Both the position numbers and the translations under genes were made by a program. Below, one piece after another: positions 16,208 to 49,482 of a stretch of 64,000 nucleotides of DNA. Source of the stretch: an archaeon (GTDB lineage Archaea > Micrarchaeota > Micrarchaeia > Anstonellales > Anstonellaceae); contig JAGVHI010000003.1 in assembly GCA_020056635.1 (NCBI GenBank), forward strand, positions 28,638 through 92,637. Direction: 5' to 3'. Numbering within the stretch: position 1 is the stretch's first letter; each line of letters starts with the position of its first letter. The notes beneath the pieces were generated by a model, which did not search any database, was not told where the DNA came from, and saw only the letters and a list, made by a program, of their open reading frames with translations.

Positions 16208-16792
16208 ATGAAGACGCAATGGGTTGCAGTGCTGCTTCTTGTAGTGGTAGTGGCGCTGGTGCTGACATTTGCCCCTTCCGCGAAAAAGGTGAGCGAGGAG
16301 GATGCAAAAAAGTTCGTGCTTGAGGACTTGAGGGAAAAGTACCCGCAAGCTGACGAGGCAAGCATCCTGTCAAGCGTGCTCCAGACCGGCAATGATTCGC
16401 AGCAGTATTATTACCTGAAAGCAAAGGTGGTGAAGAACGCGAAGACCCCGTGCCCGGAGAGGATACACCTGTATTACAATTTCCCGCTCCAGAATTTCGT
16501 CACGCAGCCCCCGGAATACATAACAAGGGGGTGCAAGGTGTGCATAAACGAGCCAGAGTGCCTGCTTGCGTTCGAGGAGGATGCGGTTATTGCCTCGCAC
16601 ACGTATGCGGGTGCAGAGCAGGTTGCGGATTACCTGAAAGCCTACCCGGATGCTCAGCCAGGCGTGAGCTCGCTTGAGGGGAAATGGGAGGTTGGATGGG
16701 ATTCACAGAATGCGGCATACTACTACAAAGTGCTTCTTTCCAAGTCCGGGAACAGCGTTGAGTCGGTTGAGAGAGTGGAGAAGGAGGGTTAA
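16208..16792 (+). CDS. Hypothetical secreted or membrane-anchored protein
   Basis: N-terminal signal/TM MKTQWVAVLLLVVVVALVL. Confidence 0.4.
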   Translation: MKTQWVAVLLLVVVVALVLTFAPSAKKVSEEDAKKFVLEDLREKYPQADEASILSSVLQTGNDSQQYYYLKAKVVKNAKTPCPERIHLYYNFPLQNFVTQPPEYITRGCKVCINEPECLLAFEEDAVIASHTYAGAEQVADYLKAYPDAQPGVSSLEGKWEVGWDSQNAAYYYKVLLSKSGNSVESVERVEKEG

Positions 16793-17241
16793 CTCTTTTT
16801 GAGCTTCTTTAGCGCACGCTCGAACGAGCCTATGTCGGCAAACGAGCGGTAAACAGATGCGAAGCGAACGTATGCCACCTTATCCAGGGTGCGCAGGTGC
16901 TTCATCACGATCTCGCCAATCTTCTTGCTTGGGATTTCAATTGAATCGCCGTGCCGGATTTCCATCTCGACCTTGTCCACGATGGACTGTATCTGCTCGC
17001 GGGTTATGGGGCGCTTCTCGCATGCCTTTAGCACCCCGTTCTCGATTTTGTGCCGCTCGAAGCGCTGGCGCGTGCCGTCCTTTTTTACCACCCAAAGCTC
17101 GGCAAGCTCCGCCCGCTCGTAAGTGGTGAAGCGCTTTTTGCATTTTAGGCATTCGCGCCTGCGCCGCACTGCAGAAAAGTCCTCAGCATCGCGCGAATCC
17201 ACGACCTTGTCCTCAAGCGATGAGCAGTACGGGCACTTCAT
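16789..17241 (-). CDS. nrdR: Transcriptional repressor NrdR (zinc-ribbon plus ATP-cone)
   Basis: MKCPYCSS...VVDSR...RRRRECLKCKKRFTTYE. Start taken at internal Met. Confidence 0.8.
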   Translation of the reverse strand: MKCPYCSSLEDKVVDSRDAEDFSAVRRRRECLKCKKRFTTYERAELAELWVVKKDGTRQRFERHKIENGVLKACEKRPITREQIQSIVDKVEMEIRHGDSIEIPSKKIGEIVMKHLRTLDKVAYVRFASVYRSFADIGSFERALKKLKKS

Positions 17242-17293
17242 GGAATCCACTTTAGGCAAAACCATATTAAAAGGCTAGGGGAAAGCCAGAACC

Positions 17294-23059: not shown

Positions 23060-24487
23060 ATGAAGAGCGGAATTATTGCATTTGCGGTTCTGGCTGTTTT
23101 TGCGGGATTGGCTGTGGCAGGTTCGTTCACAGCCCCTATTTCAGATGTTACAATATATGGGAGCAATGCCGCTTATGTCATGAGGTATGGGAATGCGGAA
23201 TTGGGGCAGGGGAGTAATTACCTTGCGCTTGAGAATTTCTCAACTAGCGCGGATATAGGGACATTGGATGCATTCGGGAATGGGGTTTCGGTTGCGGAGT
23301 ACAAGCGGTATATTGAGGAAACTAGGGAGAATAGGAGCAGGTTTTTGACGGTTGAGGAGCTGCTGAACAAATCGGTTGGCAAAAGCGTCACAATAATTAC
23401 GGAGAGGGGGCAGGAAAGCGGAAAATTGGTGTGGTATGCAACCGGTTTTGTCGGGCTTGCGTCCAATTCAGGAGGGTCGCTTCTTGTGTACAGGATTGAG
23501 GATATCAGGCAGTTGATTGCGCCAGCAGCAGAATATGAAAAAAGCGAGGAGATAAAAAATGTGAAAAACGGGCTTGGAGTAACCCTTGATGCGGAAAAGG
23601 GGGGAGCGGCAAAAATCGGGCTGGGCTATGTTGATTACGGCGCAAGCTGGAGCGCGGGCTACCGCGTAAGGCTTTCATCGGATTCCCCAAGCGGAATTCT
23701 TGAGCTTTCTGGGTTTGCAAATGTGCAAAATAGCATGTATGAGGATTGGGAGAACGCGAGCCTGAGGGTGGTAGTGGGCTCGCCCTACATGACACGGAAC
23801 TACATGCCATATCGGAGCTATTACCTGAATAACATGAAAGCCCAGGATGCATATGAAATGGTTGGGGCTGCATCGCCTGCGCCAAGCGCGCCTGATGTGG
23901 GAACATCTGACCTGTCGAATTACTATGTTTATTCGCTGAACAGGAAAGTGACTTTGAAGAATGGGGAGAGCGCAAGCGTGCCGCTCCTGAATGCAAAAAT
24001 AGCCTATGTGAGGGAGAATGTTTGGGACACGGACATGGTTGCGCCGCAGCGGGTGCTCAAATTCAACAATACCGCATCGGCGCCGCTTGCGTCAGGTGTA
24101 GCAAGCGTGTATTTGGGAACTGAATTCCTGGGGCAGGCAAGCGCGGCTTTTGCGGGAAGGGGGAATCCGGTTGAATTTGCATATGCGTCAATGCCTGAGT
24201 TCACAGTGAAAAAGGAGCTTTCGCAGGAGACTTCGGTTGTTGGGAATGCGAGGATTACTGCATACTTGGGAAACCTCACGATAAAGAATGGGGGGAGCAA
24301 AGAGGAGGAGGTTGTGGTGCGCGAGCAGATGAATTACGGGGACAAGGTCGAGTTCGTAAGCTCGGATGCGCCATCATCCGTAAAGCCCGGCAATGTGATT
24401 GAGTGGAGGGTAAAGGTGCCAGCGGGAGTTGAGAAAAAAATCGCGTATGAGTACAGGACAATCTATTACCAGCAGAAGTATTACTAG
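23060..24487 (+). CDS. Secreted hypothetical protein (signal peptide)
   Basis: N-terminal signal MKSGIIAFAVLAVFAGLAVAG, 475 aa. A T-rich tract and a hairpin follow at 24490-24560. Confidence 0.5.
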   Translation: MKSGIIAFAVLAVFAGLAVAGSFTAPISDVTIYGSNAAYVMRYGNAELGQGSNYLALENFSTSADIGTLDAFGNGVSVAEYKRYIEETRENRSRFLTVEELLNKSVGKSVTIITERGQESGKLVWYATGFVGLASNSGGSLLVYRIEDIRQLIAPAAEYEKSEEIKNVKNGLGVTLDAEKGGAAKIGLGYVDYGASWSAGYRVRLSSDSPSGILELSGFANVQNSMYEDWENASLRVVVGSPYMTRNYMPYRSYYLNNMKAQDAYEMVGAASPAPSAPDVGTSDLSNYYVYSLNRKVTLKNGESASVPLLNAKIAYVRENVWDTDMVAPQRVLKFNNTASAPLASGVASVYLGTEFLGQASAAFAGRGNPVEFAYASMPEFTVKKELSQETSVVGNARITAYLGNLTIKNGGSKEEEVVVREQMNYGDKVEFVSSDAPSSVKPGNVIEWRVKVPAGVEKKIAYEYRTIYYQQKYY

Positions 24488-24583
24488 AGCGCCCTCTTTT
24501 TCTTTCTTTTTTCCCGTTCCCCATTTCAGCCCATCCCTTTCGGATGGGCGCTAGTTTAAATAAGAAGAGCGAGAGATTGCCAT

Positions 24584-25030
24584 ATGCGTTTCTTGCGAGG
24601 GCAGGTCACAAGCGAAACCATGATAATACTGGGCATGTCGCTCATAGTCATACTTATTGCCGCCGTGCTTGCAAACCAGTACCTCACAGACCTTAATGCG
24701 CAGAAGGCGAGCAATGAGGCGCGGCTTGCGGTCGGCGATCTGGCAAGTGCGGCAAACTCCGTGTGGCGGCAGGGGATTGGGGCAAAGAAAAGGGTTTTGG
24801 TTAAAATCCCGTCAGGGGTTAATTCAAGCAACAACGTCACTTTCATCGGCAGGCCGGCAAACGACAGCTCGTCGCCAATGAGAACAATAAACATCAGGTT
24901 CTCATACGGAGATGTTGCGGCAAGCACTGATGTTGATGTTAATGGGACCATGCCAGCCAACCCAGGGGGCTATTCGCTCTGGGTGATTTCGCGCGACACT
25001 TATGTTTACATTGGCAACAGCTCAAGCTAG
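24584..25030 (+). CDS. Archaeal type-IV-pilin-like protein (class III signal peptide)
   Basis: N-terminus MRFLRGQVTSETMIILGMSLIVILIAAV: basic residues, then G|Q, then Glu at +5, then a hydrophobic helix. Confidence 0.65.
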   Translation: MRFLRGQVTSETMIILGMSLIVILIAAVLANQYLTDLNAQKASNEARLAVGDLASAANSVWRQGIGAKKRVLVKIPSGVNSSNNVTFIGRPANDSSSPMRTINIRFSYGDVAASTDVDVNGTMPANPGGYSLWVISRDTYVYIGNSSS

Positions 25031-25040
25031 GTGGAGTTGA

Positions 25041-25430
25041 ATGAGTAAAGCCCAAGCATCGGCCGAGCTTGTAGTTGTGGTGAGCGCACTCATGCTCATC
25101 TTCCTGCTCATTTTCATGATAAAGTCTTCGTACGATGATTCCACCAAAGATTATATCGAGAGGCTTGAGGCTGAGAGGATTGCAAAACAATACACCGACC
25201 TTGTGAACTACGTGGCGCTTGGGGGGCATGGGACAGAGGTTGCCGTGGTGAACACAGAGGGGCCTTACTATACAATCACATTCAATGGCACCATAACAGT
25301 GAACAGTTCGAGAGCGGTGTCAGTGCAGGCCCCAATCACAAGGAGAATGCCGGTTGATGCTTCGATTACAGGGGCAGGCAGGGTGAGGATTTACAACCAG
25401 AACGGTGAGGTTTATGTAGTGGTGAGCTAG
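25041..25430 (+). CDS. Archaeal type-IV-pilin-like protein (class III signal peptide)
   Basis: MSKAQASAELVVVVSALMLIFLLIF. Confidence 0.6.
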   Translation: MSKAQASAELVVVVSALMLIFLLIFMIKSSYDDSTKDYIERLEAERIAKQYTDLVNYVALGGHGTEVAVVNTEGPYYTITFNGTITVNSSRAVSVQAPITRRMPVDASITGAGRVRIYNQNGEVYVVVS

Positions 25431-25431
25431 C

Positions 25432-25926
25432 ATGAGGGGGCAGGGAATAATATTCGATTTTGTGGTGTCGCTTTCGTTCTTCGTAGTGGGCGTGGTGATA
25501 ATGGTCGGGGCGCTTGATATGCTAGGCGAGAGGATGGAGAAGGAGAGGGATTATGCAAACGTGGCGCGGGCGGCCTACTTCGCATCCGAGAGCCTGCTCT
25601 CGCTTGGGAGCCCAGAAAACTGGAACACCAATGTACTTGCGCTAAACCAGATCCAGGTCGGGTTAGGGGCTGCGCCCGGTGAGCTGCATGGGGCAAAAAT
25701 ACGGAATTTCGCCGCCCTCAATGCAACGGATTATGACGGCCTGCGCTCGGCGCTTGGAGTCGGAAAATATGATCTTTATGTGAATATCACGCAACTGCAA
25801 GGCAATCAGAGCTATCTTGTGGGAAAGTTCTTTGACGAGTCGTATGGGGATTTTGATTATAGGGTGGAGAGGTATGCGCTTTTAGACGGCAACCTCACTA
25901 GGGTAGTGGTTGGAGTTTGGAAGTGA
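25432..25926 (+). CDS. Archaeal type-IV-pilin-like protein (class III signal peptide)
   Basis: MRGQGIIFDFVVSLSFFVVGVVIMVGAL. Confidence 0.55.
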   Translation: MRGQGIIFDFVVSLSFFVVGVVIMVGALDMLGERMEKERDYANVARAAYFASESLLSLGSPENWNTNVLALNQIQVGLGAAPGELHGAKIRNFAALNATDYDGLRSALGVGKYDLYVNITQLQGNQSYLVGKFFDESYGDFDYRVERYALLDGNLTRVVVGVWK

Positions 25927-25933
25927 TTTGCCA

Positions 25934-28900
25934 ATGAAAAAGAGCGGGTTTGTGATATCGTTCGAGGCGCTTACAGCGCTGCTCCTGGTATTCGCCACAC
26001 TGTCGCTCATGTATGCCGCGATGAGGGACGCCCCTGCCCCAAGGGAAATAGGCTCCGAGCACAACATCGAGGCGATTGCAAGCGACATCTCGGTCCTCTC
26101 CGGGCTAGTGTACGGGAAAAACCTGAGTACTGGGAGCGCGGACCAGGTGAGCTTCCTTCTCTACCGGCTCCAACCCGGGCTGTGCGCAAGAGTTTATCTT
26201 GTGGAGAATGGCACGGGAGGATATTTTGATTCTGTTTCGAGCGGGGATTGTAGGTTGCCTACTGAGGGGAGCAACCCCGCGCCGCCCATTGCGTATTGGA
26301 CGTTTGACGCAAAGCAGGTGAGGGGCGCCAATGCATCGAACTCCACCTATGCGCTTGATGCAAGCGGAGGAGGTTATGACTGCATTGTAGGAGGGCAAGC
26401 GAGCGATGTCGGGAGCAAGAGTGCGATGCCTGGCAAGCTTGAACGCGAGAGTTGCAGGCGCAAGGGGTGCTACTCCTTCGATGCGGTGGACGACCAGCTC
26501 TCATGCCAGAACTACAGCAGGCTTATGCATGTGACTGCGAGCGATTTCACAATCGGCGGGTGGATCTATCCGAATCCTACAGGCGTCGGCCCAAGCTATG
26601 TTATCCATTCCGGGGAAGGGAGCACTGAGGAGTTCGAGGTCAGGTATTATCCTGCCAGCAGCACCATATCCGCCCGGATTTATGCCCCGCGCAATGGGAC
26701 CGTGAATGCCACGTTGCACCCGCTGGGATGGCATCATTTTGCAGCAGTGGGCAGGGGCTCGAACCTGTCGCTTTATGTTGATGGGGAATACACAAACAGC
26801 ACTGGCATGACTGACAATGGCTTACCGTACATTTCGAAAATATATATGGGGGACGGGTTCAACGGGACCATTGATGAGCTTAAGATTTTCGACCGCGGGC
26901 TGACCGCGGCTCAAGTGCGCGAGGAGGCGGAATATAGGGTGTTTGGCAAGTATGGCTTTGACTATGATTTGCGTGCGCCCTTCTCACACGGCATGGCAGT
27001 GGATGAGAGCGGGAACTGGAATGATTTGAAAGTGAGGGGCAACGCGACGCAGAACATTTCTGAGATGGGCGGGCTGGCATTCAATTTCCCGGGCCCGATG
27101 GGCGGAAGCTCGCTTGAGAATACCACAATTGCGAACTTTACCCAGACAACAGTGATGATGCGGATCAAGCAGAGGTCATACGGCAATTCAACGAATTGGC
27201 CCGGGTTGGCAGCAAGAAGTGGCAGCTTCGCGTTCTATTCAAACACCACTGTAGGAGGCGGGCTTGTACTACTGGTGTGGAATGCAACAGGCGGCGTTAT
27301 ACGAATACCGTCATTGTTACCCCAGGTTCCGCTTGACGAGTGGCACCATGTCGCGTTCACGTATGCAGGTAAGAACGCAACAATCTATCTTGATGGAGTT
27401 GGAGCGAACAGCAGCGACGCGATATACCCATACAATTTAACGCTGTCTGGAACGCAAGGTCCGCTGCAGATTGGCACGACAAATTTCGGTGTGCATGATT
27501 TCAACGGGACAATGGATGATGTGAGGGTTTATTCAAGGGCGCTTGGTGCGAGTGAAATCGAGTCAGCATATAGGGGCTATGTTGAGCACCCTGCCATATA
27601 TGAGAGTAAATCGTTGTTTGGGGCAACATACGCGAAAATTGGCGGGCTCCTTGGAACGATAAACAGGACAGCCGCGTTCTATTCGTTTGACCTTAATGCG
27701 ACTGGCAACATCACAAATGACTCCTCCCCCAATGTCTTGAATGGGCTTGTAGGTGAGGGAATTGCCCAGAAGATGCCGTACCTAAACCGCTCCAATAATA
27801 GCCCAATTGGGAATGATTACCTGAGGCTGCAGAATTTGTCCGCGTTCTACGAGTTTGACGGGGTGAATGACACCATAGCGGTGCCGAGCAATAGCCTGCT
27901 GCAGAACCCTGCTGATTTGACCGTGGAGGCGTGGGTCAGGCCCAAAAACAACGTTCCAGCAAACCAGATTGTGGCATCGTACTTAAATTCTGCAGACAAT
28001 ACTGGATGGGAGCTTAGGCTTGTTGATTCTGGGGGAACACTAAATCAGGTGATAAGGAGGGGCGATGGGGGCGGAACCTCAATCCTCACTGGGAGCGAAG
28101 CAGTCTGGGTCAACAGGTGGAGCTACATCGCTGCGACATTTTCCAGGGCAGAGGGCTCAAAGCTGTATAGGAATGGGATGCTTGTTGGGGGCAATTCAAG
28201 CGATACTGGCCCATGGCCGAACCCAACATTGAGCAATTTCACAATAGGGGGAAACGCATCAGGTTGTGCAACTTGCTTCTTCAACGGGAGCATTGATGAG
28301 GTGAGGCTGTACAACAAGAGCCTGAGCGAAAAGCAGATTTATGAAAGGTACTATCTTCGCGCAAGCTATTCGTTTGATGCCAACAATTCAACCACAGGGT
28401 TCTTCGTGAACGACAGCTCGGTTTACAAGGGGCATTGCAGGCTGGTGAACGGCACTTGGAACAGCACCGGTGGCATTTTGGGCAGGTTCTATGAATTCAA
28501 CGGGAGTACGGGTTCTGGGTTGAACTGCAGCAATTCAAGCTCAAGCAGCATCGTCGCGCTGGGTAACAGGACTGTGATGATGTGGTTTAGGCTGCGGGAG
28601 CCAAGTACCGTATCAGATTATTCGTATATCCTATTTTCACGAGGCCAGATTACATGGGACACCCTTGCGATAAATTCAAGCAGGACTATATTGACGTATT
28701 CGCACTCTTCGCCAACTGGGGTAAGTGTCATAGGCGCTCCAGTAACTCCCCTCTTTAGGGAGGTTCCAAAAAACCAGTGGCTGCATGCTGCCGTATCGTA
28801 CAACAATGCCAGTAAGGAAACCCGAGTTTACTTGAACGGGGTTATGCTTGGGAAAATTGCAAATGACACAGTCACATCCAATGAAGATATCCTCTATGTT

Positions 28901-29059
28901 GGGAGGGACACAGGTGGAAGCTATATGATGAACGGCAGCATGGACGAGGTGAAGGTTTTCGGCAGGGCATTGTCAGATTCTGAAATATTCGATGAGTATA
29001 TGAGCGCTGCAAACCCCAATGAGAGGTTTGCGGTGCGAAGCGTGGTGTGGGGCAGATGA
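25934..29059 (+). CDS. Giant pilin-like adhesin with a class-III signal peptide and four LamG/concanavalin-A-like domains, rich in N-glycosylation sequons
   Basis: N-terminus MKKSGFVISFEALTALLLVF. Four repeats of the LamG_3 hallmark: DELKIFDRGLTAAQVREEAEY, DDVRVYSRALGASEIESAY, DEVRLYNKSLSEKQIYERYY, DEVKVFGRALSDSEIFDEY. More than 40 N-x-S/T sequons. Confidence 0.7.
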   Translation: MKKSGFVISFEALTALLLVFATLSLMYAAMRDAPAPREIGSEHNIEAIASDISVLSGLVYGKNLSTGSADQVSFLLYRLQPGLCARVYLVENGTGGYFDSVSSGDCRLPTEGSNPAPPIAYWTFDAKQVRGANASNSTYALDASGGGYDCIVGGQASDVGSKSAMPGKLERESCRRKGCYSFDAVDDQLSCQNYSRLMHVTASDFTIGGWIYPNPTGVGPSYVIHSGEGSTEEFEVRYYPASSTISARIYAPRNGTVNATLHPLGWHHFAAVGRGSNLSLYVDGEYTNSTGMTDNGLPYISKIYMGDGFNGTIDELKIFDRGLTAAQVREEAEYRVFGKYGFDYDLRAPFSHGMAVDESGNWNDLKVRGNATQNISEMGGLAFNFPGPMGGSSLENTTIANFTQTTVMMRIKQRSYGNSTNWPGLAARSGSFAFYSNTTVGGGLVLLVWNATGGVIRIPSLLPQVPLDEWHHVAFTYAGKNATIYLDGVGANSSDAIYPYNLTLSGTQGPLQIGTTNFGVHDFNGTMDDVRVYSRALGASEIESAYRGYVEHPAIYESKSLFGATYAKIGGLLGTINRTAAFYSFDLNATGNITNDSSPNVLNGLVGEGIAQKMPYLNRSNNSPIGNDYLRLQNLSAFYEFDGVNDTIAVPSNSLLQNPADLTVEAWVRPKNNVPANQIVASYLNSADNTGWELRLVDSGGTLNQVIRRGDGGGTSILTGSEAVWVNRWSYIAATFSRAEGSKLYRNGMLVGGNSSDTGPWPNPTLSNFTIGGNASGCATCFFNGSIDEVRLYNKSLSEKQIYERYYLRASYSFDANNSTTGFFVNDSSVYKGHCRLVNGTWNSTGGILGRFYEFNGSTGSGLNCSNSSSSSIVALGNRTVMMWFRLREPSTVSDYSYILFSRGQITWDTLAINSSRTILTYSHSSPTGVSVIGAPVTPLFREVPKNQWLHAAVSYNNASKETRVYLNGVMLGKIANDTVTSNEDILYVGRDTGGSYMMNGSMDEVKVFGRALSDSEIFDEYMSAANPNERFAVRSVVWGR

Positions 29060-30015
29060 TGGGTTCAAAAAAAGGCTACATATACACTATTTCGATCGTG
29101 CTGATAGGCACCATACTGTCGATATTTGTGTTCAACGCATACACGCAGCACTACAGTTCGCTTATTTCCCAGCGCATAGAGTCGAGCCTGCCGCGCGCGC
29201 AGCAGGAGTTTGATTTCGTCGCTGCACAGTCGCTTGACCTGGCAAAAAACAGGGTGAGGATTTCCGGCAATTCGACTTTTTACAATGTTACGGTAACAGA
29301 CGTGCTGCCGCACAGGGCTGACAATATGGACTTCATAAACTGGAGCGCATATGGCTACTATTTGAACGGCAGCTACTACGGCCAGTCGCACTCGAACCTG
29401 ACTGTTTCGAAATACTTCTCCAATTCCAATGACGGCATGAACACCACCTTTAGGCTGTCTGCCATGGGGCCTGGAGCGGCAGCCCCCTGGAACAATATAA
29501 TGGACTGGAGAAGGGGGAATGCGAACAGCTCGAATTTCACCTATACGAAAAGCCTGACCCAGAACATGAGCGTCTCTGTGCGGTGCCAGAATGCGTCAAC
29601 AATGAGCCCGGCCGTAGTTCCTGGCAGCGATTCAAGCAATCCGTTCTACATGAAATATTCAGATCCGAATAGGGCATATGCGCAGACTGCCATTGCATCT
29701 GGCGGCGCATCAGAGGATTTGGTGGTATTTTTCATCGAGTTCAACTCAAGCGCGCCCAGCATCAATTTCACATTGAGGTTCGTGAATGAAACGCCTGTGC
29801 TGGGTGTGGGCGGAGGGGCGCAGTGCGAGGTTAACGCAAGCGTAACTACGAATGGATTGAATGAGAATTACACTGTTAAATATGATTTCAATACGCTATT
29901 GAACTACACTGCGCGCGCAGGGGACGTGGCAAACGTCACAAAATCGGCAGTTATAGGCAGGTACATGCGCGACCCGGAGTATTATGCAGCCCCGATAGAT
30001 GATTCGCAGCCTTAG
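29056..30015 (+). CDS. Pilin-like secreted protein (class III signal peptide), with heavy N-glycosylation sequon load
   Basis: MMGSKKGYIYTISIVLIGTILSIFVF. The ATG overlaps the upstream TGA as ATGA (translational coupling). Many NxS/T sequons (NSTF, NVTV, NWSA, NGSY, NLTV, NMSV, NAST, NFTL, NETP, NASV, NYTV, NYTA, NVTK). Confidence 0.6.
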   Translation: MMGSKKGYIYTISIVLIGTILSIFVFNAYTQHYSSLISQRIESSLPRAQQEFDFVAAQSLDLAKNRVRISGNSTFYNVTVTDVLPHRADNMDFINWSAYGYYLNGSYYGQSHSNLTVSKYFSNSNDGMNTTFRLSAMGPGAAAPWNNIMDWRRGNANSSNFTYTKSLTQNMSVSVRCQNASTMSPAVVPGSDSSNPFYMKYSDPNRAYAQTAIASGGASEDLVVFFIEFNSSAPSINFTLRFVNETPVLGVGGGAQCEVNASVTTNGLNENYTVKYDFNTLLNYTARAGDVANVTKSAVIGRYMRDPEYYAAPIDDSQP

Positions 30016-30169
30016 CTGGAGCCTATTGCAGGGGCGCGGCTGGGACTAATCAAGGAATATAAAGCTATTATGGGATAAGAATGGCGCAACGCCCCTGGCC
30101 TATAACCGGGGCTAGTTAGGAATTGGAAAAATGAAAACGGGCCCGTAGCTCAGCTTGGATAGAGCGGCA

Positions 30170-30192
30170 AGAGGGGGCAGCCCCTCCCGCAT
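30170..30192 (+). other. Putative 23-nt non-canonical tRNA intron between nt 29 and 30 of tRNA-Arg
   Basis: Contains its own hairpin gagggg-gcag-cccctc. Its removal restores a 5-bp anticodon stem. Confidence 0.45.
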
Positions 30193-30220
30193 GCCTTCTA
30201 AGCTGTAGGTCATGGGTTCA

Positions 30221-30348
30221 GGCCCTTTTCTTTCCGTCCGGAAAGAAAAGCCCCTGGGGAAAAGAAAGAATTTTACTGCGGAAAATATCGCCTTTCGGCG
30301 TTTTTCCGCCCTGAAATATCTTCTCCCTATGGTTATAGGCCGCCCAAA
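30221..30348 (+). other. Putative 128-nt T-loop intron of tRNA-Arg, with an 11-bp perfect hairpin at 30225-30250
   Basis: Removal reconstitutes T-loop ttcaaat. Hairpin cttttctttcc-gtcc-ggaaagaaaag. Homologous to the tRNA-Phe intron at 925-1035. Confidence 0.5.
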
Positions 30349-30400
30349 AATCCCATCGGGCCCGTCCATTATAGAGGCTAGAAGCAGGGAGGTAGGGAAC

Positions 30401-30652
30401 ATGTCATCGGCGCAGGTAAGCGACATAATCGAGCTCATGGAAACAGTGATAAACGACACTTCGATACCGAAGAACATAAGGAAAAATGTCAGCGATGCGA
30501 GGGACAGGCTGAAAAGCGCTGACGAGCTTGCGACAAGCGTGAGCTCCGCAATCTATTCGATTGAGGAGATTTCGGAGGACATTAACATGCCGATGCACGC
30601 GCGGACGCAGATTTGGACAATACTCTCCGCGCTTGAATCGCTAAAGAAATAG
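30401..30652 (+). CDS. UPF0147-family small conserved archaeal protein
   Basis: MSSAQVSDIIELMETVINDTSIPKNIRKNV...PMHARTQIWTILSALESL matches the UPF0147 pattern. Confidence 0.7.
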   Translation: MSSAQVSDIIELMETVINDTSIPKNIRKNVSDARDRLKSADELATSVSSAIYSIEEISEDINMPMHARTQIWTILSALESLKK

Positions 30653-35496: not shown

Positions 35497-36334
35497 TTGG
35501 GCCCACCTCGACTCTTGTGACGGGGCGCACGCCAAAATCAAGCGCAACCGCCTCGAACCCTATTCCCAGGAATTCGCTTGCATGCCCCAGGTTGACTGCT
35601 ATGTCAAGGCAGCCTGTGGAGGATGGGAGGATTATTGGGATGCCCTTGCCTGCGCCTTCGAAAGTCAGCCGTATTTCAGCCCGCCCATCGTAGAGCACAT
35701 GCGAGTTTTCTATGAGCAGGTGAGAGGTAAATCCGATGGGATTGGAGACATTATCGTTTGGGATTGTTGTTCGCAGGTTCCCATAGGAATCGATATCCGC
35801 AAGGAAGCCGCATGATGGTGGCGTGCCATCGTTCGGCTGAAGGGAAATCCGGGCAAGGCGCTCGTTTGGAATCTGCGGGCCGAATTCCAATATGCCCACT
35901 CCGGAAAAAAGATGCGCGGCTGCAGGCGCAAACACGTCGCGCCCCTCGAAAGTGCAGGAGTTTGCGTGCTCAAGTAGAGTGAGAGCATTGTTTTCTATGC
36001 AGACTGCGCAATCCACCCCTTCCTGCTGGAACGCAAGCGAGAGAAGGCCGTTGTCGGGCCCGATTAGGAGCTTGCCTTCTTTTGTCCGGACTATCAGGCG
36101 CGCCCGTGGAGTGCCGACGCCCGGGTCCACTACAGCGACGAATATGTCGCCTTCCCGCGAGCCGTTTGAGCCCACAGCCCGTGAAAGCTTCCATGCGCCG
36201 GAGAGTATGTTCCCGAGCTTTACGTCATGCGTTATATCGTCCGTGCGGAAATGGGCGCGCTCGCATATGCGACGTATTGAGGAGCGCAGCAGATATTTTG
36301 CCTCATCAAGCCCGAAATCAGTGAGAAGCGAGAT
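35489..36334 (-). CDS. SAM hydroxide adenosyltransferase-like protein (DUF62; fluorinase/chlorinase/SalL family), with no canonical start codon in the conserved N-terminal frame
   Basis: ISLLTDFGLDEAKYLL...DITHDV...VAVVDPGVGT. The ORF is open from 36424, but the only ATG/GTG/TTG start is the GTG at 36175, which is internal to the domain. Confidence 0.65.
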   Translation of the reverse strand: MSLLTDFGLDEAKYLLRSSIRRICERAHFRTDDITHDVKLGNILSGAWKLSRAVGSNGSREGDIFVAVVDPGVGTPRARLIVRTKEGKLLIGPDNGLLSLAFQQEGVDCAVCIENNALTLLEHANSCTFEGRDVFAPAAAHLFSGVGILEFGPQIPNERLARISLQPNDGTPPSCGFLADIDSYGNLRTTIPNDNVSNPIGFTSHLLIENSHVLYDGRAEIRLTFEGAGKGIPIILPSSTGCLDIAVNLGHASEFLGIGFEAVALDFGVRPVTRVEVGPIR

Positions 36335-36552
36335 GAGCGGCTCGCGCCCGTGGAACGGATTTTGAGCCCTGCCGCATTTGAGAACACCCTTTTCGAGTAG
36401 TTGATGTTTTTGTTTCCACTTCGCTCACCCCCATTGATTTTGTGCGATTGATGCTGTGCCTTGCGGTATTTATGGGTTGGTGACAAGGAAATTCCGATAG
36501 GAATCGGGAGGGCGGGCGATTATTATTTAAACCGCCCCTGCGTTAGGGCAGC

Positions 36553-37527
36553 ATGCGAGTGCTCTCTCTCGGAACTGGAAAAATCGATTACGACCTCCCA
36601 AAGAGGCTTTCTTGTACGTGGGTGAATTTTGAGGAGAGCGAAGGCGGGCCGCTTGCAAAGCTCGGGGTGCCGCAGGAGGTGTATAGGCGCAACTGCGCAA
36701 GGCAGTACCCACGGTACATTGAGTTTGAGAATTTTACCTCAGTCATACTTTTTGAAACCGCAACAGAGAGGAAATCAGGCCTGCACATATATGTGTTTTC
36801 TGACAGGATTGTGACTGTCAATGCACGGCACGTGATGGAGGATTTTCGACAGAACTTTTTTTTGGAGAAGAGGAGGGGCCCGGCTAGCGTGGGTGACTGC
36901 ATGCTTGCGCTCGTCTCATTCATTTTTGCGGCAAACAGCAAGGTGCTCATGAAATATGAGGAGGAAACGAGCAGGATTGAGGAGGCGATTTCAGGCGGCG
37001 GGAGGCTTGACATACACCATATATTCTCGCTTAAGCGCTCGATAAACTCGCTTTCGAAAAGGCTTTGGAGGGGCAGGGAAATCGTGTTTGACATGATGTA
37101 CGACAGGATGAAGTTCCTCGAGCTTTCAAAGGACGAAAAAATAAGGATGGATGAGATTTTCAACTCACTTCTCTTTGACATACACTCCTCGGAGCTGTTG
37201 CGCGAGATACTTACGGATTCGGTTGACGTATACCATACTATACTCTCGAACAGGATAAACGACACGATTAGGAGGCTTACTGTGGTGACAGTGGTGCTCA
37301 CTATAATTGCGACCATTTCCATGGTGCCGAACACGATTGCAACAATATTCGGAATACCGTACTTCCCGCTCAAGGCGGATGATGTGATTTTCCAGGTGTT
37401 CGGGCTGAGCATAATGCCTTGGGAGCTCATATTGCTGTTGATATTCTTCTTCTCCGTGGTTCCGGCAGCCTGGCTGTTTTTGTGGTGGCAGGGATTCAAG
37501 AAGGAAAGCGACCAGGCTCAAAAGTAA
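36553..37527 (+). CDS. CorA-like divalent-cation transporter family protein with an atypical GIP in place of the GMN signature
   Basis: Cytoplasmic ~260-aa domain plus two C-terminal TM helices, with IFGIPYF in the loop position that normally holds YGMNF. Confidence 0.45.
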   Translation: MRVLSLGTGKIDYDLPKRLSCTWVNFEESEGGPLAKLGVPQEVYRRNCARQYPRYIEFENFTSVILFETATERKSGLHIYVFSDRIVTVNARHVMEDFRQNFFLEKRRGPASVGDCMLALVSFIFAANSKVLMKYEEETSRIEEAISGGGRLDIHHIFSLKRSINSLSKRLWRGREIVFDMMYDRMKFLELSKDEKIRMDEIFNSLLFDIHSSELLREILTDSVDVYHTILSNRINDTIRRLTVVTVVLTIIATISMVPNTIATIFGIPYFPLKADDVIFQVFGLSIMPWELILLLIFFFSVVPAAWLFLWWQGFKKESDQAQK

Positions 37528-37546
37528 TTTAACCATTCGAGCGCAA

Positions 37547-38092
37547 ATGGGTGTTGGCGAGCAAATGGAGATAATCAGGATACCTTCCGAGCGGCTAGCC
37601 GTGCTCTTCGGCAAGGCAGGGGACACGCAAAAGCTATTGGAAGGCGCGTGCAAGGTGCTGCTTTCGGTTGACGAGGATGGGGCGGTGCAGATAGAGGGCG
37701 AGCCCGTGGACGAATATTTCTCAAAAGACGTGATAAGGGCGATTGGGAGGGGGTTTGAGCCCAATATTGCCCTGCTCCTGCTAAACGAGGAGTACGCCCT
37801 TAGGATTGTGAACCTTCGCGAGATGGGAAATGAGAACTGGATGCTGCGGCAGAAGGGGCGAGTAATCGGCGAGAAGGGAAGGACCAGGAAGATTATAGAG
37901 GAGATGAGCGAATCGCACATTTCAGTGTATGGGTACACCATTTCCGTGATTGCAAATCTTGGGACCATTGATATTGCGATGGAAGCAGTCTCGATGCTGC
38001 TGCAGGGGCACACGCACCCTGCAGTATATGCATATTTGGAAAAGCAGAAGCGGGAGATGAAGAAGAAGCGGGTGCTTGATTTTGTAGGATAG
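37547..38092 (+). CDS. KH-domain RNA-binding protein (archaeal Dim2/Pno1-like)
   Basis: Two KH-like modules, IPSERLAVLFGKAGDTQKLLE and RQKGRVIGEKGRTRKIIEE. Confidence 0.65.
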   Translation: MGVGEQMEIIRIPSERLAVLFGKAGDTQKLLEGACKVLLSVDEDGAVQIEGEPVDEYFSKDVIRAIGRGFEPNIALLLLNEEYALRIVNLREMGNENWMLRQKGRVIGEKGRTRKIIEEMSESHISVYGYTISVIANLGTIDIAMEAVSMLLQGHTHPAVYAYLEKQKREMKKKRVLDFVG

Positions 38093-38155
38093 CCATCTTT
38101 TACCCCGTATACAAACAAATAAATAGCCTGGAATGGATAATATGACCGAATAGCT

Positions 38156-39148
38156 ATGGCGATTATGCAGGCTGCGGGCAATACCAAAATGCACAACAGG
38201 CTAATTAGGCCTGGCATGCTTCTTATTCCAGCAGCAGTTGCGCTTGGGGTTCTAATGCGTTTTGCGCCAGGGCTTGCCTCGCCTACGCCGCAGGAAGTGT
38301 TTAGCGCATGGAAAAGCGGGCAGCATGGCACAAAAAGCGGACTTGTTTTGCCTGCAATGGAAAATGTGAATCATGCCCAATTGGCGCAGCGCGAAATTAT
38401 GAAACTAAAGCCTATGGTTGAAACACAGGGGGTTATTGCACGTGGCAGGGAAGCAAAACCGTTGCGACCCGGGCAAAGCGCGATTGCAAGGAACAGGAAT
38501 GAGGAGCCATCTCCGCCTTTGCCTTTTGACAGCCTTGTGACCAGTATGCAGGATTATTTGGTTTATTTCCAGCCGGATGTAGTGATACCCATACTCCACA
38601 ACGGAAGTTACGTATATATCCATGCGGAACGGTTTGCGGATGATGCAAATTCGGCAATCAGGTACAGCACGGTTGTGATGCAGCGGGATTCCACAAGCCC
38701 GTCTGAGCAGCTGACGCTGCAGGAGTGCATCCAGGTGCTCGGGAATGTCGGGGGCATACTTGTGATACCGAACCGGAACATGTCTTATGCTGACACGAGC
38801 TTTGCGAATGAGGTGCGAAGGGTAGGGACACTTATTTCGTGGCACGTGCCAGACAATGCAGGGGAGCCGCCGCAGGTTCCAATCAACCCGAACCTCACCC
38901 TTAGTTCGTACCCGAACCCGTTCAACAATTCAACAACTTTCAAATTCGAGCTTGCGCAGGAGGCTGCAGTGAAGCTTACTGTGCATGATTTGCTCGGGAG
39001 AACGGTTGCAAAAATCGTGGATGGCAGGATGGCGCCCGGGGAGCACGAGGTGCCGTGGGACGCACGGGAGTTCGCGACCGGAACTTACATTGCGGTATTG
39101 AATTTAGGCGGGCAGAGGGCGGTCTGGAGAATCAAGCTTGTGAAGTGA
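38156..39148 (+). CDS. Secreted protein with a Por-secretion-system (T9SS-type) C-terminal sorting domain
   Basis: N-terminal signal/TM. The C-terminal ~80 aa (LSSYPNPFNNSTTFKFELAQEAAVKLTVHDLLGRTVAKIVDGRMAPGEHEVPWDAREFATGTYIAVLNLGGQRAVWRIKLVK) matches the TIGR04183 CTD pattern. Confidence 0.55.
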   Translation: MAIMQAAGNTKMHNRLIRPGMLLIPAAVALGVLMRFAPGLASPTPQEVFSAWKSGQHGTKSGLVLPAMENVNHAQLAQREIMKLKPMVETQGVIARGREAKPLRPGQSAIARNRNEEPSPPLPFDSLVTSMQDYLVYFQPDVVIPILHNGSYVYIHAERFADDANSAIRYSTVVMQRDSTSPSEQLTLQECIQVLGNVGGILVIPNRNMSYADTSFANEVRRVGTLISWHVPDNAGEPPQVPINPNLTLSSYPNPFNNSTTFKFELAQEAAVKLTVHDLLGRTVAKIVDGRMAPGEHEVPWDAREFATGTYIAVLNLGGQRAVWRIKLVK

Positions 39149-39160
39149 GGTGGGGTTGGA

Positions 39161-41728
39161 ATGGAAAATAAGGCCTTTGCGGCAATAGCCATGATATCTT
39201 TGCTCGGAATGATTGCTGCGCAGGATGCGGGATTGCAGGCGGGGACAAGCGCGGTTGAAGGCTCATATGCAAAATGGATTGGTAATGTACGCAGTGCCGA
39301 GGCTGTACATGCGTCAGAGAATGAAGTGATGCAAGAGATAGTACGGCAGGAGGCCGCTCCTGCTGTCGGGAGCTGGGAAACGTATTTTGTCGTTGCGATT
39401 GCAAAGGGAAACATAGGCGTATGGATAGAGGGGGGCGGCGATGGAAAGGTTGCGCCTGTTTCGAATCTGGTTGAGCGGCCGGAGCTCACCGAAGAAGAGG
39501 AGCAGGAGCTTTTCAGCCTCATAATAGAGCATGGCGGCGAGCCTGCAGGCAAATTCGAAGCGCTTCCTGCAGTCTATTATGCAAGGTTCAAACGCAGCAG
39601 GGATGCGCAGACGCTTTCGCAAGAGCCCATGGTGCATGGAGTGTACCCGATCCATTCCTATCGGCCGCTCCTTTACCAGAGCAGGGCTGCGGTGGGCGCG
39701 GATTTGGCAAATGCCCAGTTCAATTCAGGGGGAGGGGTGAAAGTCGCAGTAATTGACACCGGAGTTGATTACTCAAACCCGAACTTTCGGGACCCCATGT
39801 ACATAGGAGGGGGAGGCAGGGCGGATGAAGGGGCATACTTCGGCGGTGAGCCTTATGGGGACGTTTGGCAGGATTTCCTTTTCATGAACCCGTGGGAGAG
39901 GGTGCGGGACATTCCGTTTAGGATTCCGGAGGGGTATTCGGAGCCGCTTTTTGCAAACATGATTTTCGTGGACTATTTTTCCTACCCGAATGCAAGCACG
40001 CAGGGAGGGGCGCAAAACATTACAGGCCCTGATTTTGACCTTTACCTGTACCGGCCCAGTGAATATGAGCATAACCTCGACAGCCTTGAGCTGCTTGCGT
40101 CTTCGGAGCGCGGGGGCTGGAGGAATTTCACTGAGGAGATGTATGTGCCGCAAATCGACCCCGGGCAGTACATTCTAAGGATAGAGCGAAAAAGCGATAC
40201 TGCTGGGTATTATAGGAGGTTTGATACTGGCCTAAATTCGATTGTGAACGAGCCAGCCCGCATTTCGGTTGCAATAGGAAGCAAGCCCAGGTTCATCATC
40301 GGGAGTGTGTATGCGAATACCAGCGAAAGGCCGAATGGGGCGATAGAGTCGAATGCTGGCTATCGGCTCGGGAGGTTCTCGTACAGAGGGGTTGAATACA
40401 ACTTCACGCTTAGCGACACAGTGGCAGGGGACGGGCAGTTTTACTATGGTTATGATGCGCTCTCGGCAGATATGAATGGCGATGGGAATTACTCGGATTT
40501 CCAGTTTCGGGTGAACCGGAGCAATTATGTGAATGGGCTGGGGGAGAGTTTCAGGTCTGACAACCTTAGGGGGTTTGAAACTGCGGATGCATACCGCCCC
40601 GGGGGCGTTAACCTGATTGCAAACAGCAGGCTTTTCCCTGCGGAGAATTTCACGCTTGGGATAATACTCTCGTCCGAAATCGACCAGACTTACCAGGGCG
40701 GGAACACTCCGGCAGATTCTGTCCTTTTCAATGGGAACAAGGTGCTTTTCTCCCAAACGCTGCTTGATTTCTCTTACCGCTATCCGCCAACGTTTACGCT
40801 AAAGGAGCCAGCTGACATAAGCGGGCACGGGACGCACGTTGCAGGGATACTTGCATCAGAAGGGAACCTTATGGGAATAGCACCAAAAGTGCGGGTTTAT
40901 AATGCAAAGGTATTCGGCGGGTACGCGCAGGGGCAGGGAAACGACATAGCGCTGCCTGTTTGCTTCCGGCATGTGCAAAACCAGCCAGACAGCAAGATGT
41001 ACTGCCATGGGGTGCCGCTTGCGTTTGAGGATAATGTGATTGCGGCAATGGAGGGCGCGAGGGCGAGCGGCGCAAGGGTGGTGAGCCTGAGCATAGGGAA
41101 CCGGACTGCGAATTGCAGCGATAGCCTGCTTGTAGAGCTCATAGGCAACTTTTCCAACATCTACAATATCATAGTAGTTGCTGCTGCAGGGAACGATGGG
41201 AGCTTGGCAGGCACTATACACACTCCCGGATGCGCGCAGGATGCGATTACAGTAGGGGCAACAGGCAGGGACGGGCAGGTTGCAGGCTATAGCTCAAGGG
41301 GGCCGACAGACTATGGGGCAGTGAAGCCCGATTTGGTCGCGCCAGGGGGGGACCGCGGCCTGATGCAGCCTTATGTGATTGATGGGGTCACTTACGGAAT
41401 CATGAACCCGAACGGGATTGCGGCAACCAAAAGCAGGGAAGGGATGATTTCGCTTGCGTATTTCGCGAACTATAGCAATAGCATGAACCAGCGCATGACA
41501 GGAACAAGCATGTCTGTGCCGCATGTGAGCGGCACGGTTGCGATGATGCTGCACGAGAACCCAAGCCTTACGCCTGCGCAGATAAAGCAGATGCTCATGT
41601 CTGCTGCGACCAATTTGAGCGCCGACCCAAACGCACAGGGGGCAGGGATGCTAAACGCGTATGAGGCGGTGAGGGCGGCGCATGAGATGGGAAGGACTGG
41701 CAATCCAGTTTACGAGGAGCACAGCTGA
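39161..41728 (+). CDS. Secreted subtilisin-like serine protease (peptidase S8) with a large insertion
   Basis: Signal peptide. Catalytic triad motifs VAVIDTGVD (Asp), HGTHVAGILAS (His), GTSMSVPHVSG (Ser). Confidence 0.85.
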   Translation: MENKAFAAIAMISLLGMIAAQDAGLQAGTSAVEGSYAKWIGNVRSAEAVHASENEVMQEIVRQEAAPAVGSWETYFVVAIAKGNIGVWIEGGGDGKVAPVSNLVERPELTEEEEQELFSLIIEHGGEPAGKFEALPAVYYARFKRSRDAQTLSQEPMVHGVYPIHSYRPLLYQSRAAVGADLANAQFNSGGGVKVAVIDTGVDYSNPNFRDPMYIGGGGRADEGAYFGGEPYGDVWQDFLFMNPWERVRDIPFRIPEGYSEPLFANMIFVDYFSYPNASTQGGAQNITGPDFDLYLYRPSEYEHNLDSLELLASSERGGWRNFTEEMYVPQIDPGQYILRIERKSDTAGYYRRFDTGLNSIVNEPARISVAIGSKPRFIIGSVYANTSERPNGAIESNAGYRLGRFSYRGVEYNFTLSDTVAGDGQFYYGYDALSADMNGDGNYSDFQFRVNRSNYVNGLGESFRSDNLRGFETADAYRPGGVNLIANSRLFPAENFTLGIILSSEIDQTYQGGNTPADSVLFNGNKVLFSQTLLDFSYRYPPTFTLKEPADISGHGTHVAGILASEGNLMGIAPKVRVYNAKVFGGYAQGQGNDIALPVCFRHVQNQPDSKMYCHGVPLAFEDNVIAAMEGARASGARVVSLSIGNRTANCSDSLLVELIGNFSNIYNIIVVAAAGNDGSLAGTIHTPGCAQDAITVGATGRDGQVAGYSSRGPTDYGAVKPDLVAPGGDRGLMQPYVIDGVTYGIMNPNGIAATKSREGMISLAYFANYSNSMNQRMTGTSMSVPHVSGTVAMMLHENPSLTPAQIKQMLMSAATNLSADPNAQGAGMLNAYEAVRAAHEMGRTGNPVYEEHS

Positions 41729-49423: not shown

Positions 49424-49482
49424 ACCGGACCGCATGGCAATTCTTTAAATAGCGCAAGCCAGAATTAGCCTTGGTGATTTTG

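Follow-up and report, generated by a model that had tools for sequence, protein, structure and literature searches.

The five genes and their products

Five consecutive open reading frames (ORFs) on the plus strand, at 24584-30015 of a 64,000-nucleotide (nt) stretch of a Micrarchaeota genome (family Anstonellaceae; assembly GCA_020056635.1, contig JAGVHI010000003.1, positions 28,638 to 92,637; the whole stretch is called the window below), are the subject of this analysis. The genes, here named g1 to g5, encode three small pilin-like proteins, a large protein with LamG modules and an Asn/Ser-rich protein, and a sequence-only reading of the window had taken them for the structural subunits of a type-IV-like pilus with a lectin-like adhesin. 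The five packed same-strand frames are indeed in place, and the lengths given for the first three proteins, 148, 129 and 164 amino acids (aa), are right, whereas those given for g4 (1042 aa) and g5 (320 aa) come to 1041 aa, counted from the ATG, and 319 aa. The features are as follows, the boundaries of the LamG modules being approximate.

24584..25030, plus strand: g1, 148-aa pilin-like protein with a strict class III pattern and a hydrophobic helix
25041..25430, plus strand: g2, 129-aa pilin-like protein with an exact Q-x-S-x-E, a hydrophobic helix and the strict pattern
25432..25926, plus strand: g3, 164-aa pilin-like protein with the relaxed class III pattern only and a hydrophobic helix
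25934..29059, plus strand: g4, 1041-aa modular pilin-like adhesin candidate, identical to database protein P0001
25934..26287, plus strand: N-terminal module of g4 (residues 1-118), with a class-III-like start, a hydrophobic helix and a small domain
26288..29023, plus strand: four tandem LamG/concanavalin-A-like modules of g4 (about residues 119-335, 336-550, 580-810 and 815-1030)
29056..30015, plus strand: g5, 319-aa Asn/Ser-rich pilin-like protein, in ATGA overlap with g4
24555..24562, plus strand: TATA-like box TTTAAATA, 22-29 nt upstream of the g1 ATG, read from the sequence

The genes are tightly spaced, with gaps of 10, 1 and 7 nt between g1 and g2, g2 and g3, and g3 and g4, and with the 4-nt ATGA overlap of g4 and g5 that had been placed at 29056 and is seen at 29056-29059. 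GGTG/GGGG-type ribosome-binding sequences precede g2 to g5 (for g2 a GGTGG site 8 nt upstream). The TTTAAATA box is probably the archaeal promoter of a leaderless or near-leaderless operon transcript; orthologous g1 genes carry TTTAAATA (in the related loci L082 and L083) or TTATTTAAAG (in L084 and L085) at the same upstream distance, and a GC hairpin with a T-rich tract (~24490-24552) lies between the box and the upstream DUF4139 gene. Given the tight spacing, the ATGA overlaps, the internal Shine-Dalgarno-like sites and the conserved TATA box, g1 to g5 read as a single operon with its own promoter.

All five proteins start with a short basic leader, followed by a glycine or alanine and then about 20 hydrophobic residues, and the predicted leader junctions are MRFLRG/QVTSE in g1, MSKA/QASAE in g2, MRG/QGIIFD in g3, MKKSG/FVISFE in g4 and MMGSKKG/YIYTISIV in g5. 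Class III-like starts were sought among the 345 window ORFs of at least 60 aa with a re-implementation of the FlaFind pattern (not the FlaFind program itself) together with a required hydrophobic stretch. In its strict form the pattern picked out g1 (RGQVTS) and g2 (KAQASA), along with one Sec-like protease and one out-of-register match in g4; in a relaxed form it found all five consecutive genes and four other ORFs among the 345, and this clustering of class III-like starts is not chance. The core of the g1 and g2 starts, Q(+1)-x-S/T-x-E(+5), is that of the DUF361/EppA-substrate signal, DUF361 proteins having a QXSXEXXXL motif with Q at +1 and being substrates of the pilin-specific peptidase EppA (PMC2910488). 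The motif reads QVTSE in g1, QASAE in g2, and QASSE and QASVE in orthologues, and position +9 in g1 and g2 is I or V where the DUF361 motif has L. Each position in the operon has its own signature across orthologues: (K/R)(G/A)Q-x-(S/T)-x-E for g1, (A/G)Q-x-x-x-E for g2, GQ-x-x-F-(D or xTE) for g3, G-(F/V)-x-x-x-x-(E/D) for g4, and G-Y-x-(Y/F)-T-I-S, devoid of an acidic residue, for g5.

The most conserved of the five proteins is g1, at 85%, 71%, 66% and 40-45% identity in relatives, and it has no Pfam or NCBIfam match. Its AlphaFold2 model, computed from a seven-row alignment, has a mean predicted local distance difference test score (pLDDT) of 79 and places a helix at residues 4-63 ahead of six beta strands; as modelled, g1 thus has the general pilin layout of an N-terminal helix and a beta domain. 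If one of the five forms the repeating subunit of the filament, g1 is the likeliest, being first in the operon, most conserved, small and pilin-like in its model. The JGI call of g1 is a 136-aa protein (P0121) that starts at Met13 and loses the conserved MRFLRGQVTSE leader; the 148-aa start is favoured by orthologue conservation and by the upstream TATA box, and start miscalls of this sort would hide class III signals from automated surveys.

The two other small proteins are less conserved. Orthologues of g2, a candidate small minor pilin that JGI labels 'UPF0333 family', are 61%, 48% and 26% identical in L082, L083 and L085 (E=5e-7 for L085), and those of g3 are 64%, 58% and 23% identical over the full length (the 23% in the more distant group of L084 and L085, E=2e-13); just two homologues of g3 were found among 5.8 billion clusters. 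A match of g3 to DUF7287 (PF23958), although it runs end to end, stays below threshold (16.3 bits against a cutoff of 27, E=0.015), and a literature search on DUF7287 found no papers. When g2 was compared with g1 by hhalign, only the N-terminal 64 residues of g2 aligned in register, and hhalign comparisons among g1, g2, g3 and g4 found no relationship past the N-terminal segment. Minor pilins of one set are usually not detectably related beyond that segment. Sequence searches of solved structures with g1 and g2 returned chance-level matches only (BamC and rhodopsin, E>0.1).

The architecture of g4 is that of a modular pilin, a term for an architectural class and not a homology family: a class-III-like N-terminus and a 118-aa module come first, then four LamG domains. 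The earlier assignment of four such modules is borne out by PF13385 (Laminin_G_3), which g4 passes at 296.9 bits against a cutoff of 27.6 (E=4e-89) in four stretches, and domain-end motifs of the form F/MNG(T/S)(I/M)D(E/D)(V/L)(K/R) recur at residues 309, 523, 783 and 999. Database homologues of g4 are 23-28% identical and match the LamG repeats only, and among solved structures g4 matches the S-layer-domain protein 4qvs in the PDB (E=8e-6). No family match covers residues 1-118; this N-terminal module has two conserved cysteines, C84 and C106, and is 43-48% identical to its counterpart in L083, about equal to the lectin modules. The dense N-x-S/T sequons that had caught the eye are also real, at three to four times the expectation from composition: g4 has 47 against 12.8 expected (2000 shuffles, z=10.6) and g5 has 17 against 5.4 expected (shuffles, z=5.6), in a window where other proteins carry about 0-1 sequons per 100 aa. 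The excess in g4 and g5 indicates proteins that, from their sequences, would be extracellular and N-glycosylated.

The last protein, g5, is an orphan, with itself and one 158-aa fragment as the only entries among 1.84 billion representative proteins, and its AlphaFold2 model is unusable (pLDDT 38). Its N-terminal hydrophobic segment contains no acidic residue. The G-Y-x-(Y/F)-T-I-S start is kept in the fifth gene of both L085 and L086, and between the N-terminal 160 aa of g5 and the fifth protein of L086 (1081 aa) there is a weak alignment (26%, E=0.018).

Related loci and the assembly machinery

Homologous modules occur in other loci, in which gene order and N-terminal signatures are conserved at 23-85% identity (L082, L083, L084, L085, L086, L092 and L093). 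The closest lie on two short contigs at 48-85% identity, L082 with the order Pelota-g1-g2-g3 and L083 with g1-g2-g3-g4. A profile search with g1 brought in a more distant group at 40-45% identity with the same five positions (L084 and L085), consisting of a g1-like protein of 256 aa, proteins of 137 and 180 aa, a 377-aa protein with one LamG domain and a fifth protein starting G-Y-T-F-T-I-S; pairwise comparisons with this group bear out g2 and g3 as positional orthologues, and g4 matches through the LamG domain only. A profile scan of metagenomes with the close-orthologue alignment gave no matches.

The loci that bear most on function are L086, L092 and L093, three long contigs that came from a second metagenome scan and an additional look-up; directly after the five-gene module, in the same orientation, each has a T2SSE-family ATPase gene (E=1.4e-32) and two T2SSF-family platform genes (E=2.8e-14 and 8e-12). 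The distance from module to T2SSE gene is 36-99 nt, in two lineages, and these eight-gene loci are bounded by DNA ligase and threonyl-tRNA synthetase. The proposal of a structural-subunit operon for a type-IV-like pilus with a lectin-like adhesin is thus backed by three contigs with a homologous module beside such machinery, an association that is absent inside the window. The same loci have the one ATPase gene, two platform genes and many pilin genes that are the hallmark of archaeal type IV filament (TFF) system 1, reported in methanogens and DPANN (bioRxiv 10.64898/2026.04.22.720090; PMC4858521). Because the relatives' module directly precedes one T2SSE and two T2SSF genes, the filament would be of the archaeal 'system 1' or Epd-like type, an assignment that also fits the Q(+1)-x-S-x-E core of g1 and g2, since this is the EppA-substrate motif.

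Within the window itself, the absence of an ATPase, platform protein or prepilin peptidase that the sequence-only reading had reported was upheld. Only ABCE1 and an AAA+ protein at the window edge are Walker-A ORFs, no window ORF lacking a Pfam match is both polytopic and GxGD-bearing, and the ATPase and platform proteins of the L086 pilus locus, used as tblastn queries, gave no match in the window.

The large pilins differ between loci. In L086, L092 and L093 the fourth protein has one LamG domain and the fifth is the large one (1081-1086 aa, with CBM_4_9 and LamG), whereas here the fourth gene encodes four LamG modules and the fifth has no recognised domain. Because of this contrast, the lectin modules appear from the sequences to be mobile between the fourth and fifth, or 'large pilin', positions. 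The description of the fourth protein as giant accordingly holds for this locus and is only relative, since in the relatives it is the fifth gene that carries the large lectin array.

More distant clusters vary further. L091 (2120-11990) has six consecutive class-III-like genes for proteins of 787, 757, 147, 174, 141 and 310 aa, with starts of the (R/K)GQ-x-S/T-x-EL or GF type, followed by a 75-aa ORF and an 846-aa beta-propeller protein (PF09826, E=4.5e-163); the g2-like protein of this cluster comes near the cutoff of the TadE pseudopilin model (22.4 against 22.9 bits). In L090 (1732-5739) a KaiC-like ATPase gene lies directly upstream of that for a 797-aa g1-like protein.

A probable lectin-bearing filament and its alternatives

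Taken together, these observations make it probable that the five genes supply the pilins of a type IV filament, a lectin-type modular pilin among them, in a member of the Micrarchaeota (DPANN). For the more specific role of tip adhesin and host attachment we hold the case to be evenly poised. We infer leader cleavage, filament assembly, subunit order, glycosylation, ligand and biological role along the following lines. The five proteins would be inserted in the membrane by their N-terminal hydrophobic helices, and a class III (EppA/FlaK-type) signal peptidase would trim the short basic leader after the glycine or alanine. A T2SSE-family ATPase and two T2SSF-family platform proteins, presumably encoded elsewhere in the genome, would then extrude the subunits into a filament held together through the N-terminal helices, with g1 as the repeating subunit, g2 and g3 as small core minor pilins, and g4 and g5 as large modular pilins for which there would be room only at the tip or close to it. 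The LamG modules of g4, with their predicted heavy N-glycosylation, may act as a multivalent lectin for glycans on a host cell or surface, and the lectin-bearing pilus might serve as the attachment device of a small symbiont. For bacterial tip complexes it has been proposed that a subunit without the Glu5-type residue takes the top position or is the first to be added (PMC9934059); since g5 likewise has no Glu5-type acidic residue, it may, by this analogy, cap the structure.

Several observations weigh against this interpretation. None of the window genes scanned has a T2SSE, T2SSF or Peptidase_A24 domain. There is no clear major pilin among the five proteins, and g1-like proteins reach 787-797 aa in some relatives, which is atypical for a major pilin. 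The idea that all five proteins carry class III N-termini stands for the layout, in five of five, and for the strict FlaFind-like pattern in g1 and g2; g3, g4 and g5 fail it here, each by one residue, although the L083 orthologues of g3 (RGQAIT) and g4 (KRGFIIS) pass. The DUF361 hidden Markov model (HMM) to which the sequence-only reading had pointed as a check, Class_IIIsignal (PF04021), and the other pilin models of Pfam give no match to g1-g5 at E<=1. Finally, the tip location of g4 and g5 is drawn solely from bacterial analogy.

The alternative that survives best, though we think it unlikely, is that the machinery makes a short surface stub, a pseudopilus or 'bindosome'-like assembly, with carbohydrate-binding modules exposed on it for glycan scavenging or envelope organisation; it would be akin to the sugar-binding proteins of Sulfolobus that have class III signal peptides. 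Each of the five could pass for a minor or modular pilin, with no obvious small, abundant major pilin among them, the modules are carbohydrate-binding (LamG here, CBM_4_9 and LamG in L086, L092 and L093), and the 2026 TFF census considers machineries that are adapted to handle substrate-binding proteins with class III signals (bioRxiv 10.64898/2026.04.22.720090). On the other hand, no ABC transporter or solute-binding domain lies beside the module in the window or in L086, L092 and L093, and adhesins and surface proteins are where LamG repeats of this type typically occur; g1, being small, highly conserved, first in the operon and pilin-like in its model, is compatible with a polymerising subunit.

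Less probable still, and by a good way, is that the N-termini are ordinary Sec signal anchors of a membrane-tethered lectin complex that undergoes no peptidase processing and forms no filament, the adjacency to machinery in relatives then reflecting co-regulation. Such a complex would agree with the fit of the strict class III pattern to just two of the five proteins, the lack of a pilin HMM match, the non-significant fold searches, the physical detachment of the module here from any machinery and a possible V-x-A site after the hydrophobic stretch of g1 (read from the sequence). Plain anchors would not, however, be expected to keep (K/R)-(G/A)-Q-x-S/T-x-E and other position-specific motifs down to 26-45% identity, and the predicted continuous N-terminal helix of 60 residues is much longer than a membrane anchor; the same-strand placing of the module 36-99 nt upstream of T2SSE and two T2SSF genes in two lineages and the near-threshold TadE match in a distant homologous cluster also argue for pilins. 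Very improbable, lastly, is a relic that lost its machinery after relocation and is decaying or reused for an unrelated purpose: the setting beside Pelota in the window and L082, as opposed to DNA ligase and the ATPase in L086, L092 and L093, and a degenerate tRNA-like fragment after g5 suggest past rearrangement, but all five frames are intact with conserved overlaps and ribosome-binding sites, orthologues at 48-85% identity retain the motifs and most invariant positions, in g4 all four LamG modules are complete and sequons remain in strong excess, archaea often have pilin operons that stand alone at a distance from the machinery (PMC4858521), and Mia14, a cultured member of the Micrarchaeota, has two type IV pilus (T4P) systems and a separate FlaK-like peptidase (PMC5498576).

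For the favoured reading, a filament pilin set with a lectin-type modular pilin, the closest known system by membership is the system 1 or Epd pilus (Methanococcus maripaludis; Methanobacteriales, Thermococcales and DPANN). Shared with it are some five or more class III pilins with large adhesin-like proteins encoded alongside, the EppA-substrate-type signal, the one T2SSE and two platform genes of the relatives' loci L086, L092 and L093, and the fact that pilin genes can lie away from the machinery, as the module here does, unlike its relatives. On the other hand, no homology of g1-g5 can be detected either to the Epd pilins or to a pilin family in Pfam or NCBIfam, LamG (joined by CBM_4_9 in relatives) takes the place of the DUF2341 of methanogen system 1 in the large proteins, and the relatives' eight-gene loci contain no dedicated peptidase or MinD/FleN gene.

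By mechanism, the closest counterpart is PilC of the Streptococcus sanguinis PilA-PilB-PilC tip complex, which like g4 combines a class III signal and a short pilin moiety with a concanavalin-A-like lectin and is accompanied by small minor pilins. The lectin module of PilC binds glycans, and a subunit without a Glu5-type residue is proposed to come first at the tip (PMC9934059). PilC is bacterial, with no sequence homology detected to g4, and has one lectin and one Ig-like module, against four LamG modules in g4; structures have been solved and glycan binding demonstrated for the S. sanguinis proteins, whereas g4 is known here from its sequence alone. Also close, in mechanism as well as in lifestyle, is the Saccharibacteria strain TM7x, an ultrasmall obligate episymbiont in which the large minor pilins PilX1 and PilX2, with jelly-roll/lectin-like C-terminal domains, take part in host binding (PMC11623550). 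Micrarchaeota share this lifestyle and, at this locus, candidate lectin-like large pilins, whereas TM7x is bacterial (Patescibacteria), with other domain types and other machinery, and host binding was shown there by deletion and is inferred here.

In this phylum, LamG proteins have been connected with pili before, in 'Ca. Mancarchaeum acidiphilum' Mia14: its jelly-roll LamG set is expanded, with 'some of them linked to type IV pili loci', and it has a T4P locus of eight genes that belongs to the Methanococci/Thermococci type (Golyshina et al. 2017, PMC5498576). The likeness of g4 to the Mia14 LamG proteins is one of description, and the Mia14 paper does not describe them as class III pilins, nor does it describe a conserved five-gene order. 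A further parallel is the TafC tip adhesin of haloarchaeal Tat-fimbriae, a subunit of an archaeal surface filament whose distal end is likewise LamG-like, and the NCBIfam TafC model (NF052521) matches the LamG modules of g4 (E=2e-26), at profile positions 184-360 only. As a member of the TafC family, g4 was rejected (93 bits against a cutoff of 410, and an N-terminus, MKKSGFVISFE, with no RR motif). TafC, unlike g4, bears a twin-arginine signal for export through the Tat pathway and enters its fibre by donor-strand exchange, and the family definition includes a TafA-like N-terminal beta-sandwich.

The kind of system proposed here is already known, as is the LamG-pili link in the phylum, noted in 2017, and no new kind of machine is involved. 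What is new is the recognition of LamG proteins as pilin fusions, the conserved five-gene order with position-specific class-III-like signatures, the apparent shuffling of lectin modules between positions 4 and 5, and the standing of g1, g2, g3 and g5 outside every current family model. The locus bears on the way in which DPANN archaea find their hosts and stay attached to them. Pilins of DPANN mostly go without annotation, and for DPANN genomes with machinery it has been reported that 'no pilins were annotated' (PMC9563170). This locus and its relatives provide a concrete, recognisable pilin set for Micrarchaeota, the position-specific N-terminal signatures could seed new profile models, and the LamG proteins that are abundant in the phylum include pilin fusions. 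The locus also yields candidates, namely g4 and g5 for glycan binding, g1 for filament identification, and g1 and g2 as EppA-type substrates. A bolder proposal, which we regard as tentative and rather doubtful, is that the module is a host-recognition organelle in which the conserved small-pilin core g1-g3 primes a pilus ending in the exchangeable multivalent lectin pilins g4 and g5. Were it true, host range would be determined by the lectin cassette through its recognition of glycans on host surfaces, and the module could function although its locus stands apart from the motor genes; the gain, loss and multiplication of LamG and CBM modules between lineages is a pattern seen in phage receptor-binding proteins.

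Flanking region and other features of the window

The operon lies between housekeeping flanks, with Pelota and a secreted DUF4139 protein upstream, and downstream the genes for UPF0147 and for both subunits, small and large, of DNA polymerase D (PolD). By its PolD small subunit the organism belongs to Candidatus Micrarchaeota (DPANN), and the closest species representative is only 57% identical. The position next to PolD is not conserved, homologues of g1, g2, g3 and g5 being absent from 80 Micrarchaeota loci centred on the PolD small subunit. The DUF4139/MuiA-like secreted protein (23060-24487, 475 aa, Sec-type signal) is encoded between Pelota and g1. In L082 (685-1803), g1 comes directly after Pelota with no DUF4139 gene between, so the DUF4139 gene is best seen as an insertion (or its absence as a deletion in L082) that lies outside the pilin operon.

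Just after g5, at 30139-30262, the first 28 nt resemble the 5' part of an archaeal tRNA (GGGCCCGTAGCTCAGCTTGGATAGAGCG), and a T-arm-like GGTCATGGGTTCA stands further on, with no matching 3' acceptor strand; a perfect 11-bp hairpin follows. The stretch folds much better than shuffled controls (z=-4.3) and is not called as a tRNA by ARAGORN or Rfam; possible explanations are a tRNA that is decayed, split or interrupted by an intron, and a rearrangement scar. The UPF0147 ORF (30212-30652) matches Pfam only at residues 67-143, and its first ~60 codons overlap this tRNA-like and hairpin region; the ORF is probably called too long, a start near 30402 being likelier.

Elsewhere in the window, a 530-aa protein (4732-6324) with no Pfam match has two paralogues in L086 (1064-2665 and 5104-6768, 34-36% identity), a few kb upstream of the pilus locus, and by sequence it is a conserved family of these archaea. 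In a stretch of ~3 kb (36200-39150) the only long ORFs (e.g. 37165-38331, minus strand) are without family matches, have odd-looking translations and may or may not be coding, and an Rfam scan of it found no family. Next to it lies the gene for a secreted 855-aa S8 subtilase (39161-41728), which appears to contain large insertions because the 288-position catalytic profile is spread over residues 190-829. About 8 kb from the subtilase gene, a secreted 586-aa protein (49471-51231) carries a Kazal-type serine-protease-inhibitor domain (E=1e-8), which to our knowledge is unexpected in an archaeon. An NrdR-type repressor with a Zn ribbon and an ATP-cone is encoded at 16789-17265, NrdR being mostly a bacterial regulator.

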